Part shown: positions 1-7,640 of the stretch, piece by piece | Position numbering within the stretch: the first letter of the stretch is position 1 | Layout: every line of letters begins with the position of its first letter | Assembly: GCA_010093705.1 (NCBI GenBank) | Contig: MU006104.1 | Span: 556,992 to 620,991 of the forward strand | Direction: 5' to 3' | Length of the DNA stretch: 64,000 nt | DNA from: Patellaria atrata CBS 101060 | Lineage: Eukaryota | Program-made: the position numbers and the translations under genes | The notes under the pieces: generated by a model | Databases searched by the model: none | Seen by the model: only the letters and a program-made list of their open reading frames with translations | What the model was told of the DNA's origin: nothing

Positions 1-213
1 TTTCCACGATTATCTATACTTGCAATTGAGATCCTCTCAATTCCAGCAATGAGCGATGAACCAGAACGAGTGTTTTCAGCAGCTCGTCGTACGGTATCAT
101 GGGAAAGATCACGCTTAAGTTCAAGAGAGTTAGAACATACTGAATGTCTTAAACATTGGGCAAAACAAAAAAATTTATTGAAAGGTTCGTACGATTTGTT
201 TAGTTTCACCTAA
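1..213 (+). CDS. hAT transposase, C-terminal dimerisation domain (5'-partial)
   Basis: Open frame 1-213: FPRLSILAIEILSIPAMSDEPERVFSAARRTVSWERSRLSSRELEHTECLKHW. A possible intron at 185-229 would move the stop to 258. Confidence 0.85.
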   Translation, partial: FPRLSILAIEILSIPAMSDEPERVFSAARRTVSWERSRLSSRELEHTECLKHWAKQKNLLKGSYDLFSFT

Positions 214-350
214 TGGCTACTGATCTCAGACACACGTAAAGGTACAGATCACGTCTGAGTGCTACCAACAGCCCTGGATAGCTAGGCAAAGCAGAACACC
301 GAAACGCCAGAACGCTTAAACGCCAAAGAATACTTCGTACGAAGCTCTGC

Positions 351-882
351 TCAACCAATGATTATAGCATTTTGGGGAGTAGCCCCTCATCGTCATCCAG
401 CACAATAGCATTCCCAGGGGCGGTGCCGTCAGCTCCGTCAACCCCTGAACCAGGTCCAAGCACCCTGGCTCCTTGAGCAGGCTTATCTGGACCACCAGCT
501 CGTACGGAACAGCGTGCTGTATGGTCGCGCCATTTGCAGTTGGCGCATGTTCCGCCAAAGTGTCCCTCAGCGCGGTGACAACTAAGGAAGGGACGGAAAT
601 CTCTCGTACGACAAGCCGCACAAGGATCAACGTCACCTCCACGAGACTGGATAAGAATCCCATTGACATATGACTGCCTATGAGATCCAATCTGCTCGGT
701 GTGATAGAGTCACGTACGAACTCAACATCAACACCTCCACCGACGGCCAGAAGTGCTCTATTCTGTGGGCTGTGACACCACGGAGCCAATTGCTGCTGTG
801 TTACGAGTAGCACCGGGTTGCGGTTCGCGTGAGCGGCAGCCGTGATCGCTGGGTTATAGAGAACTACTTGCGTATTGGCCAT
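351..882 (-). pseudogene. DUF3716-like Cys-rich protein carried in the transposon, apparently with two 1-nt frameshifts
   Basis: The N-terminus MANTQVVLYNP...VDVEFVRDSITP continues after a shift near 698 as EQIGSHRQSYVNGILIQSRGGDVDPCAACRTRDFRPFLSCHRAEGHFGGTCANCKWRDHTARCSVR. A second shift near 385 restores TPQNAIIIG*, which mirrors GTAPGNAIVL. A canonical 5'UTR intron lies at 931-884. Confidence 0.75.
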
Positions 883-959
883 ACTATAGTCTTATTAGCC
901 TTCGTACGATAGGTTTAAGCTGAGTACTTACACTTTGAGTTACTAAAATCAAAGATTGA

Positions 960-1012
960 GAAGGAGAGAAGAAGAGAAGAAGAGAAATTCAAAAAAAAGA
1001 TGTATTTTATAC
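960..1012 (-). promoter_or_regulatory. Putative core promoter of the cargo gene (TATAAAA followed by a CT-rich tract)
   Basis: The minus strand reads TTTGTATAAAATA near 1016-1004, then a TTCTCTTCTC tract, upstream of the intron donor GTAAGT at 931. Confidence 0.5.
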
Positions 1013-1244
1013 AAATTGGCAGGTAGGCAGGTGGGCCAGTAGACAGGTGGACAGGCAGGCACGTAGGCACGCCCTCGTGCCTTCTATCTTAGAACAGCTA
1101 TAGATGTTATTCATAGCTATATAATCCCTTCGTACGAAGAGTATCTTTATTTTAATTAAATTTCTAAGAAAACGATAATATTTTAGTTGAATTCTAAAGA
1201 ATATTAAAAAATCTTAAAATGCCAAGAGTATTGTTAAGGTATTA

Positions 1245-1317
1245 TGATATTCGATACAATACCGATGAAATACCGAGAATACTAATACCTTATCGATACG
1301 GATCGTTGGCCACACTG
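1245..1317. repeat. Transposon subterminal repeats and terminal inverted repeat
   Basis: Clustered AATACC(G), AATACT and GATAC units at about 1250-1300, then the TIR-like GATCGTTGGCCACACTG at 1301-1317. The predicted 8-bp TSD is TCCACATC (1318-1325). Confidence 0.6.
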
Positions 1318-1397
1318 TCCACATCCGATGGCTTGTACCCGACACTTTAACAATACAGTACGGCGATTTTATACTCAAATAATTTGAAGCTTCTGTG

Positions 1398-2886
1398 ATG
1401 TTTTCTCAATTCGCTTCTTTTCGATTCCCTACCTTCAACTTCCGTAGCTCGAATGCTCCTAAGATCGACATTCCCTCCGTCCCAATTTACGATGTCGAAA
1501 CATCTGTGGAACGACGTGCTCGAACGCTAAAGCACTTGATCAAGGCAAATCATGTCAATTACTCCATAATCTATCACAACCTGAGGTTTCATAACCACAC
1601 CAACCACGTATGTCAGAACACCAGATAAAGGAATCAATGAGGTGGAAAATAGCACAACCAGCTGAGTAGCAATGGGTAGATTCTAGGATCTGCTTACATC
1701 CTTGGAGCAACACCGGAACACCTAAACCAAGTCTATGAGAAGGAGTCAGGATATCATGAACCTTGGAGAGATTCCCCAGGGGAGATATCCAAAGAGGATT
1801 GGAGGGACTTTCTTGGGAAACGAGAGTGAGTTCTCAATACGCTAGAGGGTAGGAAATAATCTAATGGATCATAGATACCAAAGAGCATTCGTCGACTTTT
1901 TTGAAGATGAGCTCGTTCAAGAGGGATATGACTACGATAGACTACTAGAAGACTACCTGCTTAAGGGGGATGAGCCCCTCATTAATGGGTTAATAGGTAG
2001 ATGTGAGTTGGTCAGAATCTGGTTATTGGATGGAAGCTAAAGTCTGCGCGTAGTGGGACATCCGCTCATACACTTAGGATATGCGTACGAATTGAGGTCA
2101 CAAACGATAGGCATTGAGGCGCTTGCCCTAGGAGCTTGCTTCTACAATTCATTACACAAATACCTTGATGATCCTTCTTATACCAAACCATCCTCATACT
2201 CTTCTAAGGACCTTCTCGAAATACTTCAGAAAATTCAGGATGATTTACGATTCGATAAATTATTCAACGAACCAACTGCTGGTAATATAGACGAACTTCT
2301 TGAAAAGCGAGAAGCTGCCGTACTAGACCATTGGAATGCCTGGGATATATCAGACCCGAAGAAGCAGTTTGAGGACTCACAGAAGGTAGCTGTGTCTCTT
2401 CTTGTGGGTACGCAAACGGAAGATTCAAAATACGACTTCTTTCTAGTACATCTCTTGACGACTTCACATGCTGTTCGCATATTGTTGCCTCTTCTTCCAC
2501 CCAAGTTCCACATTCCATTGGTACGCCAATGGTGGTTTTTCACTGTGCTCGTATACATTACGCAGCTCAGACCTACTATAAAACTAGACAGGATCGAAAA
2601 GTATGACCTGAAAGGAAGGGATTGGAAATTTGTCGAGCATAAAGCTCTATCATCGAAATGGGCATTTGACGCACACTATGTTAAAGGTACGATCTATCAG
2701 ACATATCAGCCCCAATTCCACTAACCCGAATCTTTAGCGCTTCGGTCGATGAAAGAAGCCGCTATTACTTGGGGTGATGATGGCCAGTTTTACCTCAAAG
2801 CATCGGTTAAGTTCGCAGACACTTTCACCAATTGGGCCGGATTTGGTCTTATGGGTAATGATGAGGCCTATGGTCATTCAGTTTAG
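1398..2886 (+). CDS. Questin oxidase / HypA-like (DUF4243-type) oxidoreductase, 5 exons
   Basis: Motifs FHNHTNHILGSAYILGA, GHPLIHLGYAYE, DFFLVHLLTTSHAVR and DAHYVKALRSM. GT-AG introns at about 1608-1679, 1826-1875, 2003-2053 and 2687-2737. Confidence 0.8.
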
Positions 2887-4571
2887 GGAAAATGGTACAG
2901 TATCTTCAACCAAGACATTCCCTTTGGGATATCGAGTTGGAAGCTTTGACATCTGACGTTGAGGGATTTAGTGCACGTGGATCATAGCGCCGGATCGACA
3001 AGCACGCCTAAACCTCGTGCCAGCTTAGGATATTGATGCACGGAACTTGCAGGAGCCTGGCAGCTCTTCCTGCTTTTCTTTGATACTCTCTGGGAGATGT
3101 CTTGGTACCTGTGTTAGATATATTGCAGGATCCTTCTCTTCATCGTCGTGTGCTTCCTGTGCCTCCTGTGCCTCAATAATGTACGGGTTCACCGTGTTGG
3201 GTCCGGTAAATCGGCCCAATTGCATCGGGCGAAAGAGGTGAAGTTTCCGATCCGTGCCACTTTGGACGAGATCGGGTACAGGTAACTTCATGCTCAACAA
3301 CAACAACTTCTTGCCCAGATGATAGGAATATTACATATTCAGGTCGGAATGCAACGGATGGCTTTCCAAGTGTTTCCGAACATCCTTTCATGAAATAACC
3401 AGCTGATGAAGGTGCTGATTCGAGCGCTTATGGTTGTATCCGTGACAAAGAGTCTGATGTAAGCAGGTTGCAGTAAATACTAGCTCCAAACTCCGCCGAG
3501 TTATAAAGGAAGAATTACCGTACCTTTATGATACCTTAGTTGATATAATAAGAAAGCTACGATTGCCTCAGGATCGACCTTCTGTCACACCTCGGTCTTC
3601 TATCCCTTTGGAATTTCTCTGGTTCCTACGGCCAGGGCCTTGTGTGAAGTTAGGTTATTTGACGTTAACAGGACTATAAATAAACGAATTCGGTCCCGCA
3701 TCCGGTTTTTTTGAGGTTTATAGGATCGGAGGAGTGCCAGCAACCTAATACGTTGAACCCAAATCCTTACCGAGTTATGACGGCAGTCGGATGTGAACTT
3801 GGTTCTCATTCAATACTGTAACCATAAACTGTCTACAGCAACACTTGGAAGCTTAGAAGATATTCCTATCCAGCAAAGCATTTAAGCCAAGCAGAAAGAA
3901 TATTCTCCTGCAGCATCGGCACATTTCACTAGCATTAGTTCTGCTGCATATTAAGGATCACTGGCTCACTGCAGATCCCTAACTCACTCTGCTGCCTGCA
4001 AATACGTACGCTATTATTCCTCCCTCCCTCCCTCCCTCCCTCCATCCCTCCCTCCTCTCACTTCCAGTACTTTCCTGTACCTCCATTCACGTCCGCCGTG
4101 GGTCTCCGTCATCTGTTCCCGTTTTAGCAAACCTAATACCCTAAGCATACACAACAATCCAAACCCTTCAAAAAGTTGATCCGCCCGCTGCGGCTTGTCC
4201 CTTCTCTTCTCCGACATCTACCTAAAGCCCCTCCTTGGCCCTCCACGCTTTATCCTCCTCCCTCTTGTTTATTATTTCTGATGTCACGGCTATAACTTGC
4301 TTACTTGCCTCCTCCGATAAGTTCCTCTCAAATCTCATTCTCGCCTCGAAACCAGACTCATTATACTCTTGACTTTCAATTGAGACCATCTCTCGGAGGT
4401 TTATCTCTCGATCCCTTCACTAAGGCGGAAATCCGGCACCGCTCGGTTGGCGTAGAAGAGATAAACTATTTTTTTTTTGAGTCAACCGTGGTCTGCGGCG
4501 CTCAATCCATAGTTTGGTCATCTTCTCTACCCATTTCGAACTTACCTCAGGTTCATTGTTCATAGCCCACC

Positions 4572-7500
4572 ATGTCTTCCCTCAAGAAAGCACTCCACAA
4601 ACTCAAACCCCACCACAACAGCAACCCTGCCAGTGACGACGAGTCCGGGACGACTACGCTAGCATCACCCGCAACAGGATCTACCCCCACACTAGATTCT
4701 CCTCAAAGAGCCTCTTCTCCAAAACCTTCCCCTCGCAACAGTCACCAGTATTCGCGCAATAGTGGGACTTTCCCGCGACCAAATGGATCGGATTCACCTC
4801 GTGGTGGTCGCACCAGCAAGGACATCATCCGTAGCAGCGGCACTTTCGGACACCGCAGTCGCAATAGCCTTGGTTCTCGCAGCCCTATCCGTGGCCTTCG
4901 GGAGAAACTACATATTGGAGGAGATGATTCATCTGGATCCGAGGACCTCCCTCTCAACAGAGATGGGGAGCCCATGAGCAAGAATCAACAAAGGAAACAT
5001 GAGAGACAAGCTTCACGGGAAGCTAGAAGGAAGGAAGTTGAGGAGAAAGAGGCGGAATTTCTGAAATTTCGCCAGGAAGAAGAAGAGCGTGCTGCTCGGG
5101 AGGAACCGCCAGAAGCCAAAGCTTGCTATGGAATGTTACCCGTCAACCATTATGCTGGCGAGTGGACACATGCAGAGCGTACGATTCTACAGGGAATATC
5201 CGCGAAGGATGTTGGCAAAGAGCTGTTTTTCCGAGCTCGTATCCATCATCTCAGGAAACTTAGTTCTCACTTGGTCTTCTTTGTTTTTCGACAGCAAACT
5301 GTCACCATTCAGGGTGTCCTGCACGAACATGACAATATTTCACGCTGGATGATGTATTGGGCAGAACATCGAAATGTCGAGGATGTCGTCCTAGTCAAGG
5401 GTGTAGTTCAGGAGGCAAAATCCAAACAAGGCGAGGTCACTGGTGCCACAATCCACGACGTTGAGATTTCAGTTCATGAAATGCATGTCGAAGCATCAGT
5501 CACAGAACCGCTACCTTTTACGGTTGCAGAAGCTGAAATTACCCAACAGGAAGTAGATCGTGAGCAAGATACCCGTGTCAAAGTTTCCGATAGGACTAGA
5601 TGGCAAAACCGAGTTTTGGATCTCCGGACATCGGCTGCACAAGGGATATTCAGGGTCCAATCTGGTATTGGACACCTATTCCGGGAATACTTGGATACTC
5701 AAGGTTTTATTGAAATTCATACCCCGAAGCTTCAGGGAGGTGCCACCGAATCTGGCGCCAGCGTCTTCAAGATTGATTACTTTGGAAGAGGAGCATTCTT
5801 AGCTCAGAGTCCTCAATTAGCCAAACAAATGAGCATTGCTGCAGATTTTAAGAAGGTTTATGAGATCGGCGCTGTTTTCCGAGCAGAGAATAGCAACACT
5901 CATCGTCATTTGACCGAGTATACGGGCCTCGATCTGGAAATGGCCATAGACGAGCATTATCACGAAGTCTTGCGTACCCTAGACAACACATTCAAGTACA
6001 TCTTCGCTGGGATTTATAAGAAGTATAGAAATGAAATAGATGCTGTCAAGAAGCAGTTTCCCCATGAGGATTTAGTCTGGCTAGATGAGACGCCAAGAAT
6101 TCCATTCAAGGAAGCAGTTCAGATGCTGAACGAGACTGGCTGGACGGATGAGCATGGCAAACCACTACCGTTGAATGAGGATCTTGGCACAAGGGATGAG
6201 ATTCAACTTGGTAGAGTTATCAAAGAAAAGTACGGAACGGATTACTACATCCTAGACAAATTTCCAACCTCTGCTCGACCTTTCTACACTATGCCTGATC
6301 CGAACGATCCGGAATACACAAACTCCTTCGATATCTTTCTACGAGGTCAGGAAATTCTGAGCGGTGGCCAGCGTATTCATGACACCAAGACGCTGCTTTG
6401 TAAGATGGAAAGGATGAAGGTTGACCCTATGTCCATGGAAGAATACATCAACGGCTTCCAGTGGGGTGCACCGCCTCATGGAGGTGGTGGTATTGGTTTA
6501 GAGCGTATGCTCATGCTTCTCCTACAACTGGGTGATATCAGACATGGTTCCATGTACCCGAGAGATCCCAAGAGCTTACCCGCCCGACCAAAAGTCACAC
6601 AACTACGGCACCCAGAAGCTAGCACAATGCATCCGCCATGGGAGAACCAGGACCGTGCCGCAGCAGGGATCGACTTCCAACCTATTGAGAAGCTTATTGC
6701 CAACTATGGTGATGCCTCTAACACCTCCTGGCTCGAGCCGCGTACTCAGATCTGGCGTGATGAGTACACTGGCGCTGCCATTGGTTACGTACCTCAAGAT
6801 GGCTTCGCTATTACTGTCGGTGACCCTCTCTGCCATAAGAGCCAGTATCTGAAGACCATCACTGGTTACCTCCGATACGTCAAGAAGGAGCGTAATCTTA
6901 AACCCCTCTGGCTCCTCGTCGGAGCAGACGTTGAGGAAGTTCTAGCAACCAAGTTCAACTGGCGCACGTTCTCCGTCGTGGCAGAGCAGCGCCTAAACCC
7001 AGCCAACAACCCGGCACTTTCGGATCAGGATATCCAGCGCAAGATCCGCCATGCAGAGCGTGAAGGCGTTAAGCTCCACGATATCCCGCTCGGCACTCCA
7101 GTTCCCAAAGAAGTGCGAGACAAAGTCGACGCGCGGCTCAAGGACTGGCTCGCAAACCGTAAGGGCAAGCAAGTCCATCTCACAGACCTGCATCCGTGGC
7201 AAGATATGGAGCACCGTCAGTACCACTACGCCATCGACTCCTCTGGTACCGTCGCGTCCCTGGTTGTCATGGCGCAGCTCTCTCCCGAGCACGGCTGGCA
7301 AGTCAAGTACAGTCTCGACTTCCCCGGTGCTCCAAGCGGTACCATCGAGATGATTGTTACTCACGCCCTGAAGGTTGTCGCCCAAGGCGGCGCTACCAAT
7401 GTCACGTTCGGTGGTGGTGCGAGCAACAAGTTCACCGTAGGGCATAACTTGAAGGGCGCCAAGGTCAAGGTGCTCAGCAAGGCATATCACGCTATTGCCA

Positions 7501-7640
7501 CAGAGTTGAAGTTGACAGCGAAGACGGAGTTTAGAGAAAAACTGGGCGCGCAGGATGATCCGGTCTATTTGTGCTATCCACCGCATGGGCTAGGACCAAT
7601 GGGTGTGAAGGCAATTTTGACCTTCTTTGAAGACGATTAG
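4572..7640 (+). CDS. erdS: Aspartyl-tRNA synthetase-DUF2156 fusion: ergosteryl-3-O-aspartate synthase
   Basis: 1022-aa intronless ORF with an OB fold and class II AspRS motifs (FRAENSNTHRHLTE, EILSGGQR, PPHGGGGIGLER). A C-terminal DUF2156/MprF-like aminoacyl transferase domain follows (VGDPLC, GTIEMIV, EFREKLG). Confidence 0.9.
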   Translation: MSSLKKALHKLKPHHNSNPASDDESGTTTLASPATGSTPTLDSPQRASSPKPSPRNSHQYSRNSGTFPRPNGSDSPRGGRTSKDIIRSSGTFGHRSRNSLGSRSPIRGLREKLHIGGDDSSGSEDLPLNRDGEPMSKNQQRKHERQASREARRKEVEEKEAEFLKFRQEEEERAAREEPPEAKACYGMLPVNHYAGEWTHAERTILQGISAKDVGKELFFRARIHHLRKLSSHLVFFVFRQQTVTIQGVLHEHDNISRWMMYWAEHRNVEDVVLVKGVVQEAKSKQGEVTGATIHDVEISVHEMHVEASVTEPLPFTVAEAEITQQEVDREQDTRVKVSDRTRWQNRVLDLRTSAAQGIFRVQSGIGHLFREYLDTQGFIEIHTPKLQGGATESGASVFKIDYFGRGAFLAQSPQLAKQMSIAADFKKVYEIGAVFRAENSNTHRHLTEYTGLDLEMAIDEHYHEVLRTLDNTFKYIFAGIYKKYRNEIDAVKKQFPHEDLVWLDETPRIPFKEAVQMLNETGWTDEHGKPLPLNEDLGTRDEIQLGRVIKEKYGTDYYILDKFPTSARPFYTMPDPNDPEYTNSFDIFLRGQEILSGGQRIHDTKTLLCKMERMKVDPMSMEEYINGFQWGAPPHGGGGIGLERMLMLLLQLGDIRHGSMYPRDPKSLPARPKVTQLRHPEASTMHPPWENQDRAAAGIDFQPIEKLIANYGDASNTSWLEPRTQIWRDEYTGAAIGYVPQDGFAITVGDPLCHKSQYLKTITGYLRYVKKERNLKPLWLLVGADVEEVLATKFNWRTFSVVAEQRLNPANNPALSDQDIQRKIRHAEREGVKLHDIPLGTPVPKEVRDKVDARLKDWLANRKGKQVHLTDLHPWQDMEHRQYHYAIDSSGTVASLVVMAQLSPEHGWQVKYSLDFPGAPSGTIEMIVTHALKVVAQGGATNVTFGGGASNKFTVGHNLKGAKVKVLSKAYHAIATELKLTAKTEFREKLGAQDDPVYLCYPPHGLGPMGVKAILTFFEDD

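Follow-up and report, generated by a model that had tools for sequence, protein, structure and literature searches.

A DUF3716 gene and an evenly spaced CGTACG palindrome occur together in transposons of many classes in Ascomycota

As a rule, hAT elements are regarded as carrying a single gene. The first bases of a 64,000-nucleotide stretch of Patellaria atrata CBS 101060 DNA (GenBank assembly GCA_010093705.1, contig MU006104.1, positions 556,992 to 620,991 of the forward strand; hereafter the window, numbered from its first base) hold the end of such an element together with a putative second gene, and the locus raises the question of what this gene encodes and why a transposon should carry it. 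An earlier note, made from the sequence alone, had proposed that a listed open reading frame (ORF) of 188 amino acids is a frameshift chimera that hides a gene with a DUF3716-like cysteine cluster, and that the element is a two-gene hAT with a zinc-binding, probably DNA-binding accessory protein. To our knowledge, DUF3716 is a widespread fungal domain without an assigned function. Here we report that window positions 1-1317 form the 3ʹ portion of a fungal, multi-copy hAT transposon with a second, convergent gene, and that the DUF3716 gene family travels inside transposons of many classes in Ascomycota. With such genes found inside at least seven kinds of transposon, always in the company of an evenly spaced palindrome, TCGTACGA, DUF3716 gains a concrete proposal for its role.

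A DUF3716 gene within a multi-copy hAT element

As listed, the 188-amino-acid ORF (882..316, minus strand) gave no match in the Pfam scan. It begins MANTQVVLYNPAI... / MANTQVVLYNPAITAAAHANRNPVLLV..., and similarity is gone after ...DSITP; the neighbouring minus-strand frame, open from 709 to 365, continues with ...QIGSHRQSYVNGILIQSRGGDVDPCAACRTRDFRPFLSCHRAEGHFGGTCANCKWRDHTARCSV. This frame of 115 amino acids matched the Pfam DUF3716 profile PF12511 over positions 2-59 of 59 (E 1.9e-12, 47.3 bits; gathering cut-off 22 bits). The match covers residues 18-70 of the frame (500..658, minus strand) and includes six cysteines spaced C-x2-C-x10-C-x10-C-x2-C-x8-C (509-622, minus strand). Five homologues found by a word-based search read unbroken through ...VEFVRDSITPEQIGSHRQSYVNG..., therefore the break is a true one-nucleotide frameshift, one base short in the G run at 698-699 of the plus strand. 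A 44-nt intron joining the two frames (GTACGT...CAG, 717-674) was also considered and was ruled out by the same five homologues. Two named paralogues of P. atrata CBS 101060 are intact, P0001 (174 amino acids, 96% identity) and P0002 (178 amino acids, 72%), and both, as well as P0003, exceed the PF12511 cut-off. Since family members mostly stop shortly after a ..NAIVL motif, the tail of the window frame, ..NAIVLDDDEGLLPKML, needs no second frameshift. The gene thus occupies 362..882 of the minus strand (ATG 882-880, stop 364-362), with a product of about 175 amino acids once the frameshift of this copy is corrected, and it is convergent with the transposase. Both the chimeric nature of the listed ORF and the DUF3716 homology of the corrected frame were therefore borne out. 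The promoter and intron that had been assigned to the gene are present as sequence signals on the minus strand, namely TATAAAA at 1005..1011 as a candidate TATA box and a candidate 48-nt intron of the 5ʹ untranslated region at 884..931 (GTAAGT 931-926, CTAAT 898-894, TAG 886-884), which ends 1 nt before the ATG.

The transposase is represented by its last 70 codons and the stop (1..213, plus strand), the remaining element lying upstream of the window. The translation of bases 1-210, FPRLSILAIEILSIPAMSDEPERVFSAARRTVSWERSRL..., matched the PF05699 dimerisation domain (E 3.1e-12, profile positions 31-83 of 84), and full-length relatives, found via this C-terminus, bear PF27041, PF27039 and PF05699; the DDE core itself is upstream of the window. 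The element ends at 1317 with the terminus CAGTGTGGCCAACGATCC (1300..1317, minus strand, read inwards), as indicated by two contigs in each of two public sequencing runs, X1 and X2, which depart from the window exactly after this position. The end lies 435 bp beyond the ATG, which places the accessory gene inside the element. The terminal string was found once in the window, and no second copy of the element was found within it. hAT elements produce an 8-bp target-site duplication at insertion, and by this rule the bases 1318..1325 are a candidate duplication whose partner end is outside the window.

The comparison with contigs of public runs covered window positions 1-2400. Runs X1 and X2 come from the same sample and behave as DNA, without joints at the introns of the neighbouring gene. 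The flank at 1361-2400 was a single contig with a depth of 329 in X1 and 473 in X2, whereas contigs matching the element exactly reached 3303 (1-155), 2684 (178-630) and 3017 (713-995) in X1, and 4379 (267-562) and 5189 (812-980) in X2. The element, including the DUF3716 gene, is multi-copy, with a depth about 8-11 times that of the flank, a ratio that does not equal an exact copy number and is used here only as a sign of the multi-copy state. Diverged contigs (about 11-14% different) covered 136-387, 360-594 and 589-871, and because the first of these spans the ends of both genes, older copies share the same layout. Exact and diverged contigs over the gene region confirm that other copies carry the gene as well. 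A further run with another organism label (X3) has the same locus, including the flank at 1344-1521.

Several smaller observations concern the end of the element. A joint at 1139-1218 in the AT-rich subterminal region, seen in one contig each of X1 and X2 at about single-copy depth, corresponds to a 78-nt deletion variant. In run X4, with a third organism label, one 155-nt contig was identical to 1133-1287 and none of the other of the 2400 bases was found; the contig could stem from a short derivative element or from carry-over. The string GTATCGA occurs twice within 1251-1299, and the ends of one of the metagenomic loci described below (L077, 1371-1399 / 4704-4732) are made of ATCGATAC repeats. 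Both strings might be subterminal sites used by the transposase itself and separate from the palindrome, the evidence for GTATCGA being weak, with two copies near the end.

DUF3716 genes in elements of unrelated classes

A HMMER search over 1.84 billion representatives gave 301 family proteins at E<=1e-3 and 113 at E<=1e-10; 150 proteins were listed, and 50 of these form the alignment A1, with which metagenome contigs were scanned. The scan yielded 176 relatives, the best 80 of which are the loci discussed below (L001 and so on). All 80 were selected for encoding a DUF3716 protein, and 65 of them form a non-redundant set from which 15 near-duplicates have been removed. hAT neighbours were sought by tblastn with eight full-length hAT transposases, themselves found via the C-terminus in the window.

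A hAT transposase adjoins the DUF3716 gene in 24 of the 80 loci. The arrangement is convergent, as in the window, in 18 of them, the genes being 217-379 bp apart and in one case 1234 bp; in the remaining six both genes are in tandem, the DUF3716 gene being downstream of the transposase at 414-645 bp. Eight of the 13 best-matching loci were of the hAT type, four contigs were too short on the relevant side and one (L001) was of another kind. At L032 both genes are enclosed by 25-nt inverted repeats (660-684 / 4061-4085, CAG...CCAACGAT) that are 84% complementary and resemble the end of the element in the window, CCAACGAT being common to both; no target-site duplication was recognised there, as the flanks of L032 had no clear match. 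Thus the two-gene layout that had been proposed for the window recurs. The gene is, however, not special to hAT elements, as it accompanies at least six other kinds.

These other kinds were recognised by a Pfam scan of large ORFs. Ty1/Copia polyproteins are neighbours in six loci (L017, L025, L027, L033, L042, L063), Ty3/Gypsy polyproteins in three (L014, L049, L067), and NDC10_II, a domain which we take to be related to the tyrosine recombinases of Cryptons, in L046, L054 and L075. A pogo/Fot1-like transposase with DDE_1 and HTH_Tnp_Tc5 domains was found in L001, and an IS3EU-like ORF with an rva_4 integrase core stands beside the DUF3716 gene of L023. L026 and L078 hold ORFs of 1350-1460 amino acids with an N-terminal OrsD-like domain and a DEAD/Helicase_C core, and L038 (799 amino acids) and L045 (212 amino acids) hold OrsD only; all four adjoin DUF3716 genes inside dense CGTACG arrays. 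Ordinary host genes were the neighbours in L015, L039, L044, L064 and L074. The tally over the 65 non-redundant loci was 21 hAT, six Copia, three Gypsy, four Crypton-like, four helicase/OrsD, one pogo-like, one rva_4, five host-like and 20 unclassified loci, the last being short contigs or ORFs without a match, 11 of them outside the Pfam scan. The small ORFs beside non-hAT elements exceeded the PF12511 cut-off in 18 of 19 cases, and in the 19th the wrong ORF had been taken. The ends of three Copia contigs overlap themselves (L025 by 150 nt, L033 by 99 nt, L017 by 127 nt); these contigs close on themselves, and therefore the repeated unit includes the DUF3716 gene.

A maximum-likelihood tree was built from the 65 non-redundant loci and the two named paralogues, from which 16 rows with in-frame stops were dropped (51 rows, 139 columns, partly resolved). 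It requires 29 changes of the element label, with a minimum of 11; shuffled labels required 33.6 changes on average, and 2 of 200 shuffles were as low as 29. Well-supported pairs mix the classes, for example the rva_4 locus L023 with the OrsD locus L045 (96/82). The label changes and the mixed pairs argue that the gene switched its host element several times.

A palindrome under selection at the DNA level

The second component of these elements is the palindrome. In the window, TTCGTACGA has 7 matches where 0.42 are expected, six of them within 1-1317, and CGTACG has eight sites in 1-1317 versus 16 in the other 62.7 kb. Two sites lie in the transposase, at 88..93 (codons RRTV, where 12 related hAT loci have it as well) and at 188..193 (TTCGTACGA, in the last codons of the ORF), and one, at 336..341 (TTCGTACGAA), lies between both genes. 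The DUF3716 gene holds three, at 501..506 (codons S-V-R, the same place in 21 of 58 loci), 605..610 (C-R-T-R, 5 of 65) and 713..718 (F-V-R, 28 of 64). The remaining two are at 903..908 (TTCGTACGA), within the candidate intron, and at 1131..1136 (TTCGTACGAA), on the upstream side of the putative promoter; from there to the end of the element, over 186 bp (1132-1317), CGTACG is absent.

An unbiased k-mer count over the 80 loci returned TCGTACGA as the top 8-mer (682 seen versus 5.5 expected, 125-fold) and CGTACG as the top 6-mer (1386 versus 57.5), with the logo yTTCGTACGAAr. Among the 65 non-redundant loci the density of CGTACG reaches 7.02 per kb within the gene-bearing clusters, where 1022 sites fall on 145,672 bp, but 0.33 per kb in the remaining sequence (67 sites in 204,922 bp), and 51 loci have at least five sites. 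The spacing is regular, with a median of 136 bp and a mode of 120-160 bp (n=992); 5.3% of the distances are below 40 bp, in comparison to 23% for random placement. Two neighbouring ORFs without a DUF3716 gene of their own had no array, namely a long interspersed nuclear element (LINE) ORF of L067 with 2 sites in 3345 nt and a Tc3-like ORF of L046, which is outside the cluster. DUF3716 genes in a host context still stand in small clusters (8 sites in about 1 kb at L015, 7 at L074 and 12 at L039).

The sites extend into the coding sequence. In sixteen non-hAT ORFs (48,078 nt) they fall in the three phases 124, 91 and 120 times, 335 sites in all. Arg-Thr pairs are written CGTACG in 124 of 173 cases versus 8% expected, Val-Arg pairs are written GTACG in 146 of 185 versus 27%, and Ser-Tyr-Asp/Glu is written TCGTAC in 39 of 45 versus 13%. 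The hAT transposases are about 55% identical, yet they have sites at the same codon places: at positions 136, 186, 327, 431, 532 and 661 of P0239 the motif is present in 9, 11, 11, 11, 12 and 12 of the 18 loci mapped, and the window site at 88 corresponds to position 661 (RRTV). Synonymous codon choice keeps the palindrome in the coding sequence. Selection acts on it as a DNA sequence, and this includes synonymous sites in the genes for transposase, reverse transcriptase and recombinase.

Some loci poor in the motif hold decayed forms of it. L050 has seven copies of TTATACAA, and L040 and L053, whose neighbouring element is unclassified, have TTGTACAA. These are the pattern expected if both CpGs of the palindrome mutate, and together with the in-frame stops found in the family, the decayed motifs fit a decay of old copies driven by methylation or by a process like repeat-induced point mutation (RIP).

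CATACAA was also among the enriched decayed forms (L050, L040, L053, L071), the CpGs having turned into TpG, CpA or TpA, with no CGTACG there. We also considered a different palindrome in motif-poor hAT loci and rejected it, since L050 shows a decayed TCGTACGA and L051 and L061 nothing clear. In L021, whose DUF3716 protein is on a long branch, the non-palindromic variants TCGGACGA (four copies) and CGGACGAA (five copies) are enriched instead of TCGTACGA.

The DUF3716 protein

Most of the proteins listed have 100-270 amino acids, and the taxonomy of the Atlas places the family in Ascomycota. In the alignment A1 a conserved N-terminal region, ..NPVLxVGGQQLAP..HS...RA.LALPG.DV.FVRG.I...Q..SHRPSYINAILIQSRG, is followed by six cysteines with the spacing C-x2-C-x(9-15)-C-x10-C-x2-C-x8-C. 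Among the 50 aligned sequences C85, C99 and C110 do not vary at all, and C88, C113 and C122 hardly do, each column being invariant or at least 90% conserved. The six-cysteine pattern was present in 113 of 155 family proteins examined, and the cluster presumably binds zinc. A short C-terminal tail, [AP][IVL]x[LVIF], for example ..GNPIVL, is found in 41 of these 113.

According to the AlphaFold2 prediction on A1, the protein forms a single compact domain with a predicted local distance difference test (pLDDT) score >90 over residues 20-125 and a disordered tail, and short helices begin at each CX2C. In P0003, P0008, P0013, P0032 and others the C-terminus reads ..[ST]xxN[PA]I[VI]L after acidic or Ser/Gly-rich disorder, which we assume to resemble a SUMO-interaction motif.

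Binding data come from a host protein. Recombinant NCU05718 of Neurospora crassa, in which no DNA-binding domain had been annotated, binds double-stranded TTAGGG repeats directly (PMC4650311). A second paper describes NCU05718 as orthologous to the Fusarium graminearum DUF3716 protein PSC58, which is required for ascogenous hyphae (PMC10776026).

Proposed role and alternative explanations

What could a gene and a DNA motif that move together between unrelated elements be doing? Taking the observations together, we believe, with somewhat more confidence than doubt, that the DUF3716 protein binds the TCGTACGA palindrome and marks its own element, a function that would be general to all transposon classes. 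The protein would be a sequence-specific binder of double-stranded DNA that recognises this motif, probably as a dimer in view of the palindromic site, and it may coat or mark the element that encodes it as well as sister copies in trans. Its role could be to keep the element transcribed or to shield it from heterochromatin, DNA methylation or RIP. Since DDE cut-and-paste elements, tyrosine-recombinase elements and long terminal repeat elements share the module, the role should be independent of the chemistry of transposition, and we think an effect on transcription, chromatin or genome defence more likely than one on transposition itself. The binding of this motif by DUF3716, its action as a dimer and the effect of the binding are what we infer from these patterns.

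A broader version of this proposal would treat the DUF3716 gene and the TCGTACGA array as a portable self-marking cassette, acquired repeatedly by ascomycete hAT, pogo, IS3EU-like, Crypton, Copia, Gypsy and helicase elements. Coating the element at intervals close to the size of a nucleosome, the protein would keep it active or conceal it from heterochromatin, from cytosine methylation or from the sensing of homology by which RIP is set off in premeiotic tissue, and would thus represent a fungal counter-defence common to class I and class II elements. We put this forward tentatively, as a possibility with the odds against it. One host DUF3716 gene, PSC58, is essential in this premeiotic tissue.

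A number of points weigh against the binding and marking that we propose. The link between protein and motif rests on co-occurrence, and the motif may in truth be bound by a host factor. The only DUF3716 protein with known DNA targets bound TTAGGG repeats rather than the palindrome (PMC4650311). The fold resembled no solved DNA-binding domain: Foldseek gave no match to the Protein Data Bank (PDB) at E<=0.001, the top rows being Zn2Cys6 chains of Hap1 at E 3.2, VIA-align found none of 48,161 chains at Z>=2 and none among the 8 rows of Foldseek, a profile search of PDB sequences returned 0 matches, and Zn_clus did not match P0001, P0002 or P0003 at E<=10. With regard to the motif, seven of the 65 loci have fewer than three copies, a k-mer scan of four of these seven found CpG-decayed forms in L050, L040 and L053 and none in L061, and arrays without a DUF3716 gene were assessed on the two neighbouring ORFs described above only. 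Finally, the gene is often damaged. In-frame stops were present in 16 of 67 rows of the tree input, and the frameshift of the window seems to be common to most recently amplified copies, contigs with the extra G at 696/697 accounting for 434.7 of a depth of 2570 in X1 and 1459.8 of 9996 in X2. As frameshifted copies dominate the depth, the protein is not needed in cis for spread and, if it matters, it acts in trans.

Among the alternatives, the arrays may recruit a host transcription factor, either the factor of the cyp51 element or a Zn2Cys6 regulator of the FgSR type, while DUF3716 acts otherwise, e.g. through protein-protein contacts of its ..NPIVL tail. In Pseudocercospora fijiensis, extra copies of a 19-bp promoter element with CTCGTACGAT accompany cyp51 overexpression (PMC6637983). 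The palindrome can thus work positively in a host promoter, a point that counts for our own proposal as well. The FgSR homodimer binds an element with two CGAA, and TTCGTACGAA has two inverted CGAA, which is a resemblance only (PMC6420630). The absence of fold evidence for DNA binding in the Foldseek and VIA-align searches and the [AP][IVL]x[LVIF] tail of 41 of 113 family proteins would also suit this explanation. On the other hand, gene and array travel together in seven kinds of element, the host-context genes of L015, L074 and L039 still lie in small motif clusters, and a DUF3716 protein does bind double-stranded DNA directly (PMC4650311). We therefore regard a host factor as the reader of the arrays as rather unlikely.

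The protein might also be a self-limiting repressor that acts on the arrays and dampens expression or mobility. Copy-number control of this kind has analogues in Ty1 p22 and the KP repressor of the P element, and the co-occurrence data agree with it as well as with binding that favours the element, as they do not give the sign of the effect. Repeated uptake by unrelated elements, as indicated by the 29 label changes in the tree versus a minimum of 11, would hardly be expected of a repressor, and in the only promoter in which it has been studied the palindrome has a positive effect (PMC6637983). This makes repression improbable in our view.

A further alternative is a hAT-specific transposition cofactor that binds subterminal repeats and helps the transposase, like the Myb-like protein of PIF/Harbinger or TnpA of En/Spm. 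The gene does lie inside the element beside the transposase, and copies of the motif are present in the 3ʹ subterminal kilobase. However, the same family and motif are found in Copia, Gypsy and Crypton-like elements, which have no need of a hAT transposase, the motifs run throughout the transposase coding sequence rather than at the ends alone and are missing from the terminal 186 bp, and frameshifted copies account for the greater part of the depth. We consider such a cofactor very doubtful. Lastly, the idea that this hAT copy captured a host gene in a single event, or that the element landed beside a host gene, for which the host-like context of L015, L039, L044, L064 and L074 might speak, is refuted by the 8-11-fold depth of the gene region, the same as at the transposase end, by diverged copies that carry the gene (136-387, 360-594, 589-871), by an element boundary 435 bp beyond the ATG and by the 24 of 80 relatives beside a hAT transposase.

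Relation to known systems

A precedent for the gene content is REP9/Styx, a Zymoseptoria class II transposon of the IS3EU type. It likewise holds additional genes, and a DUF3716 domain is present in two of them, REP9-1 and REP9-2 (PMC8232023; PMC10853768). L023, with its DUF3716 gene and rva_4 integrase-core ORF, is a similar combination. REP9/Styx differs from the element described here in its superfamily and its four genes, and the accessible parts of both reports mention neither a motif array nor a function of DUF3716; REP9-1 affects the formation of pycnidia (PMC8232023; PMC10853768). The later REP9/Styx paper gives other domains for the ORFs.

For the way in which the module works, VANC of the Arabidopsis VANDAL elements (Mutator-like) may be the closest analogue. 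This sequence-specific protein is encoded by the transposon, and its short target motifs have built up in the element family to which it belongs (PMC5735166); in our case, too, the protein is encoded by the element and a short motif is enriched in the elements that encode it. The two proteins are unrelated, and loss of methylation was shown for VANC (PMC5735166), whereas the function is only inferred here. VANC targets are often tandem repeats, with binding in non-coding regions according to a later abstract, whereas the palindrome is evenly spaced and present also in the coding sequence at synonymous sites. Unlike VANC, one protein family and one motif are here common to class I and class II elements.

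Second element-encoded proteins that bind repeated short motifs of their element also include the Myb-like protein of PIF/Harbinger and TnpA of En/Spm. Each of these is restricted to one superfamily and binds the ends, whereas DUF3716 is unrelated to them in sequence and not tied to one mechanism. With the Zn2Cys6 factors, such as Gal4 and Hap1, DUF3716 has in common the order CX2C...C...CX2C...C, with short helices predicted at each CX2C, and these factors are likewise fungal proteins whose dimers bind paired short half-sites. The same is true of FgSR (PMC6420630). DUF3716 differs from them in its longer loops (10/10/8) and in matching neither the Zn_clus profile nor the fold, thus the likeness is one of pattern only. 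The host proteins NCU05718 and PSC58 have the same Pfam domain (PMC10776026) and are encoded by single-copy host genes, and the bait in the binding work was the telomere repeat.

Our literature search found no description of TCGTACGA or CGTACG arrays in transposons, with subscription journals and Repbase reports outside its scope, so that a prior description is possible; within the same scope, DUF3716 genes were assigned to a transposon in the REP9/Styx work alone (PMC8232023). This suggests that the cross-class module of DUF3716 and TCGTACGA is new. If the protein does bind the palindrome, unrelated mobile elements would share an accessory module, which would offer a handle on the survival of fungal transposons under strong genome defences, and the TCGTACGA arrays would be a simple signature for finding such elements. 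The module may also bear on why a duplicated promoter element containing TCGTACGA raises cyp51 expression in a crop pathogen (PMC6637983).

Other genes in the window

Downstream of the element the window holds genes of another kind. A gene split by short introns (1395-2886, plus strand) has a main exon that matches Questin_oxidase (E 5e-56), and the end of the hAT element is about 80 bp upstream of the first ORF piece of this gene. A short (CCCT)n-like run, tccctccctccc..., at 4019-4050 is located upstream of an ORF of 1022 amino acids (4572-7640, plus strand) in which tRNA-synt_2, a class II aminoacyl-tRNA synthetase domain (E 7.5e-72), is fused to LPG_synthase_C (E 8.7e-11), an architecture that we take to be that of the fungal ergosteryl-aspartate synthase (ErdS).

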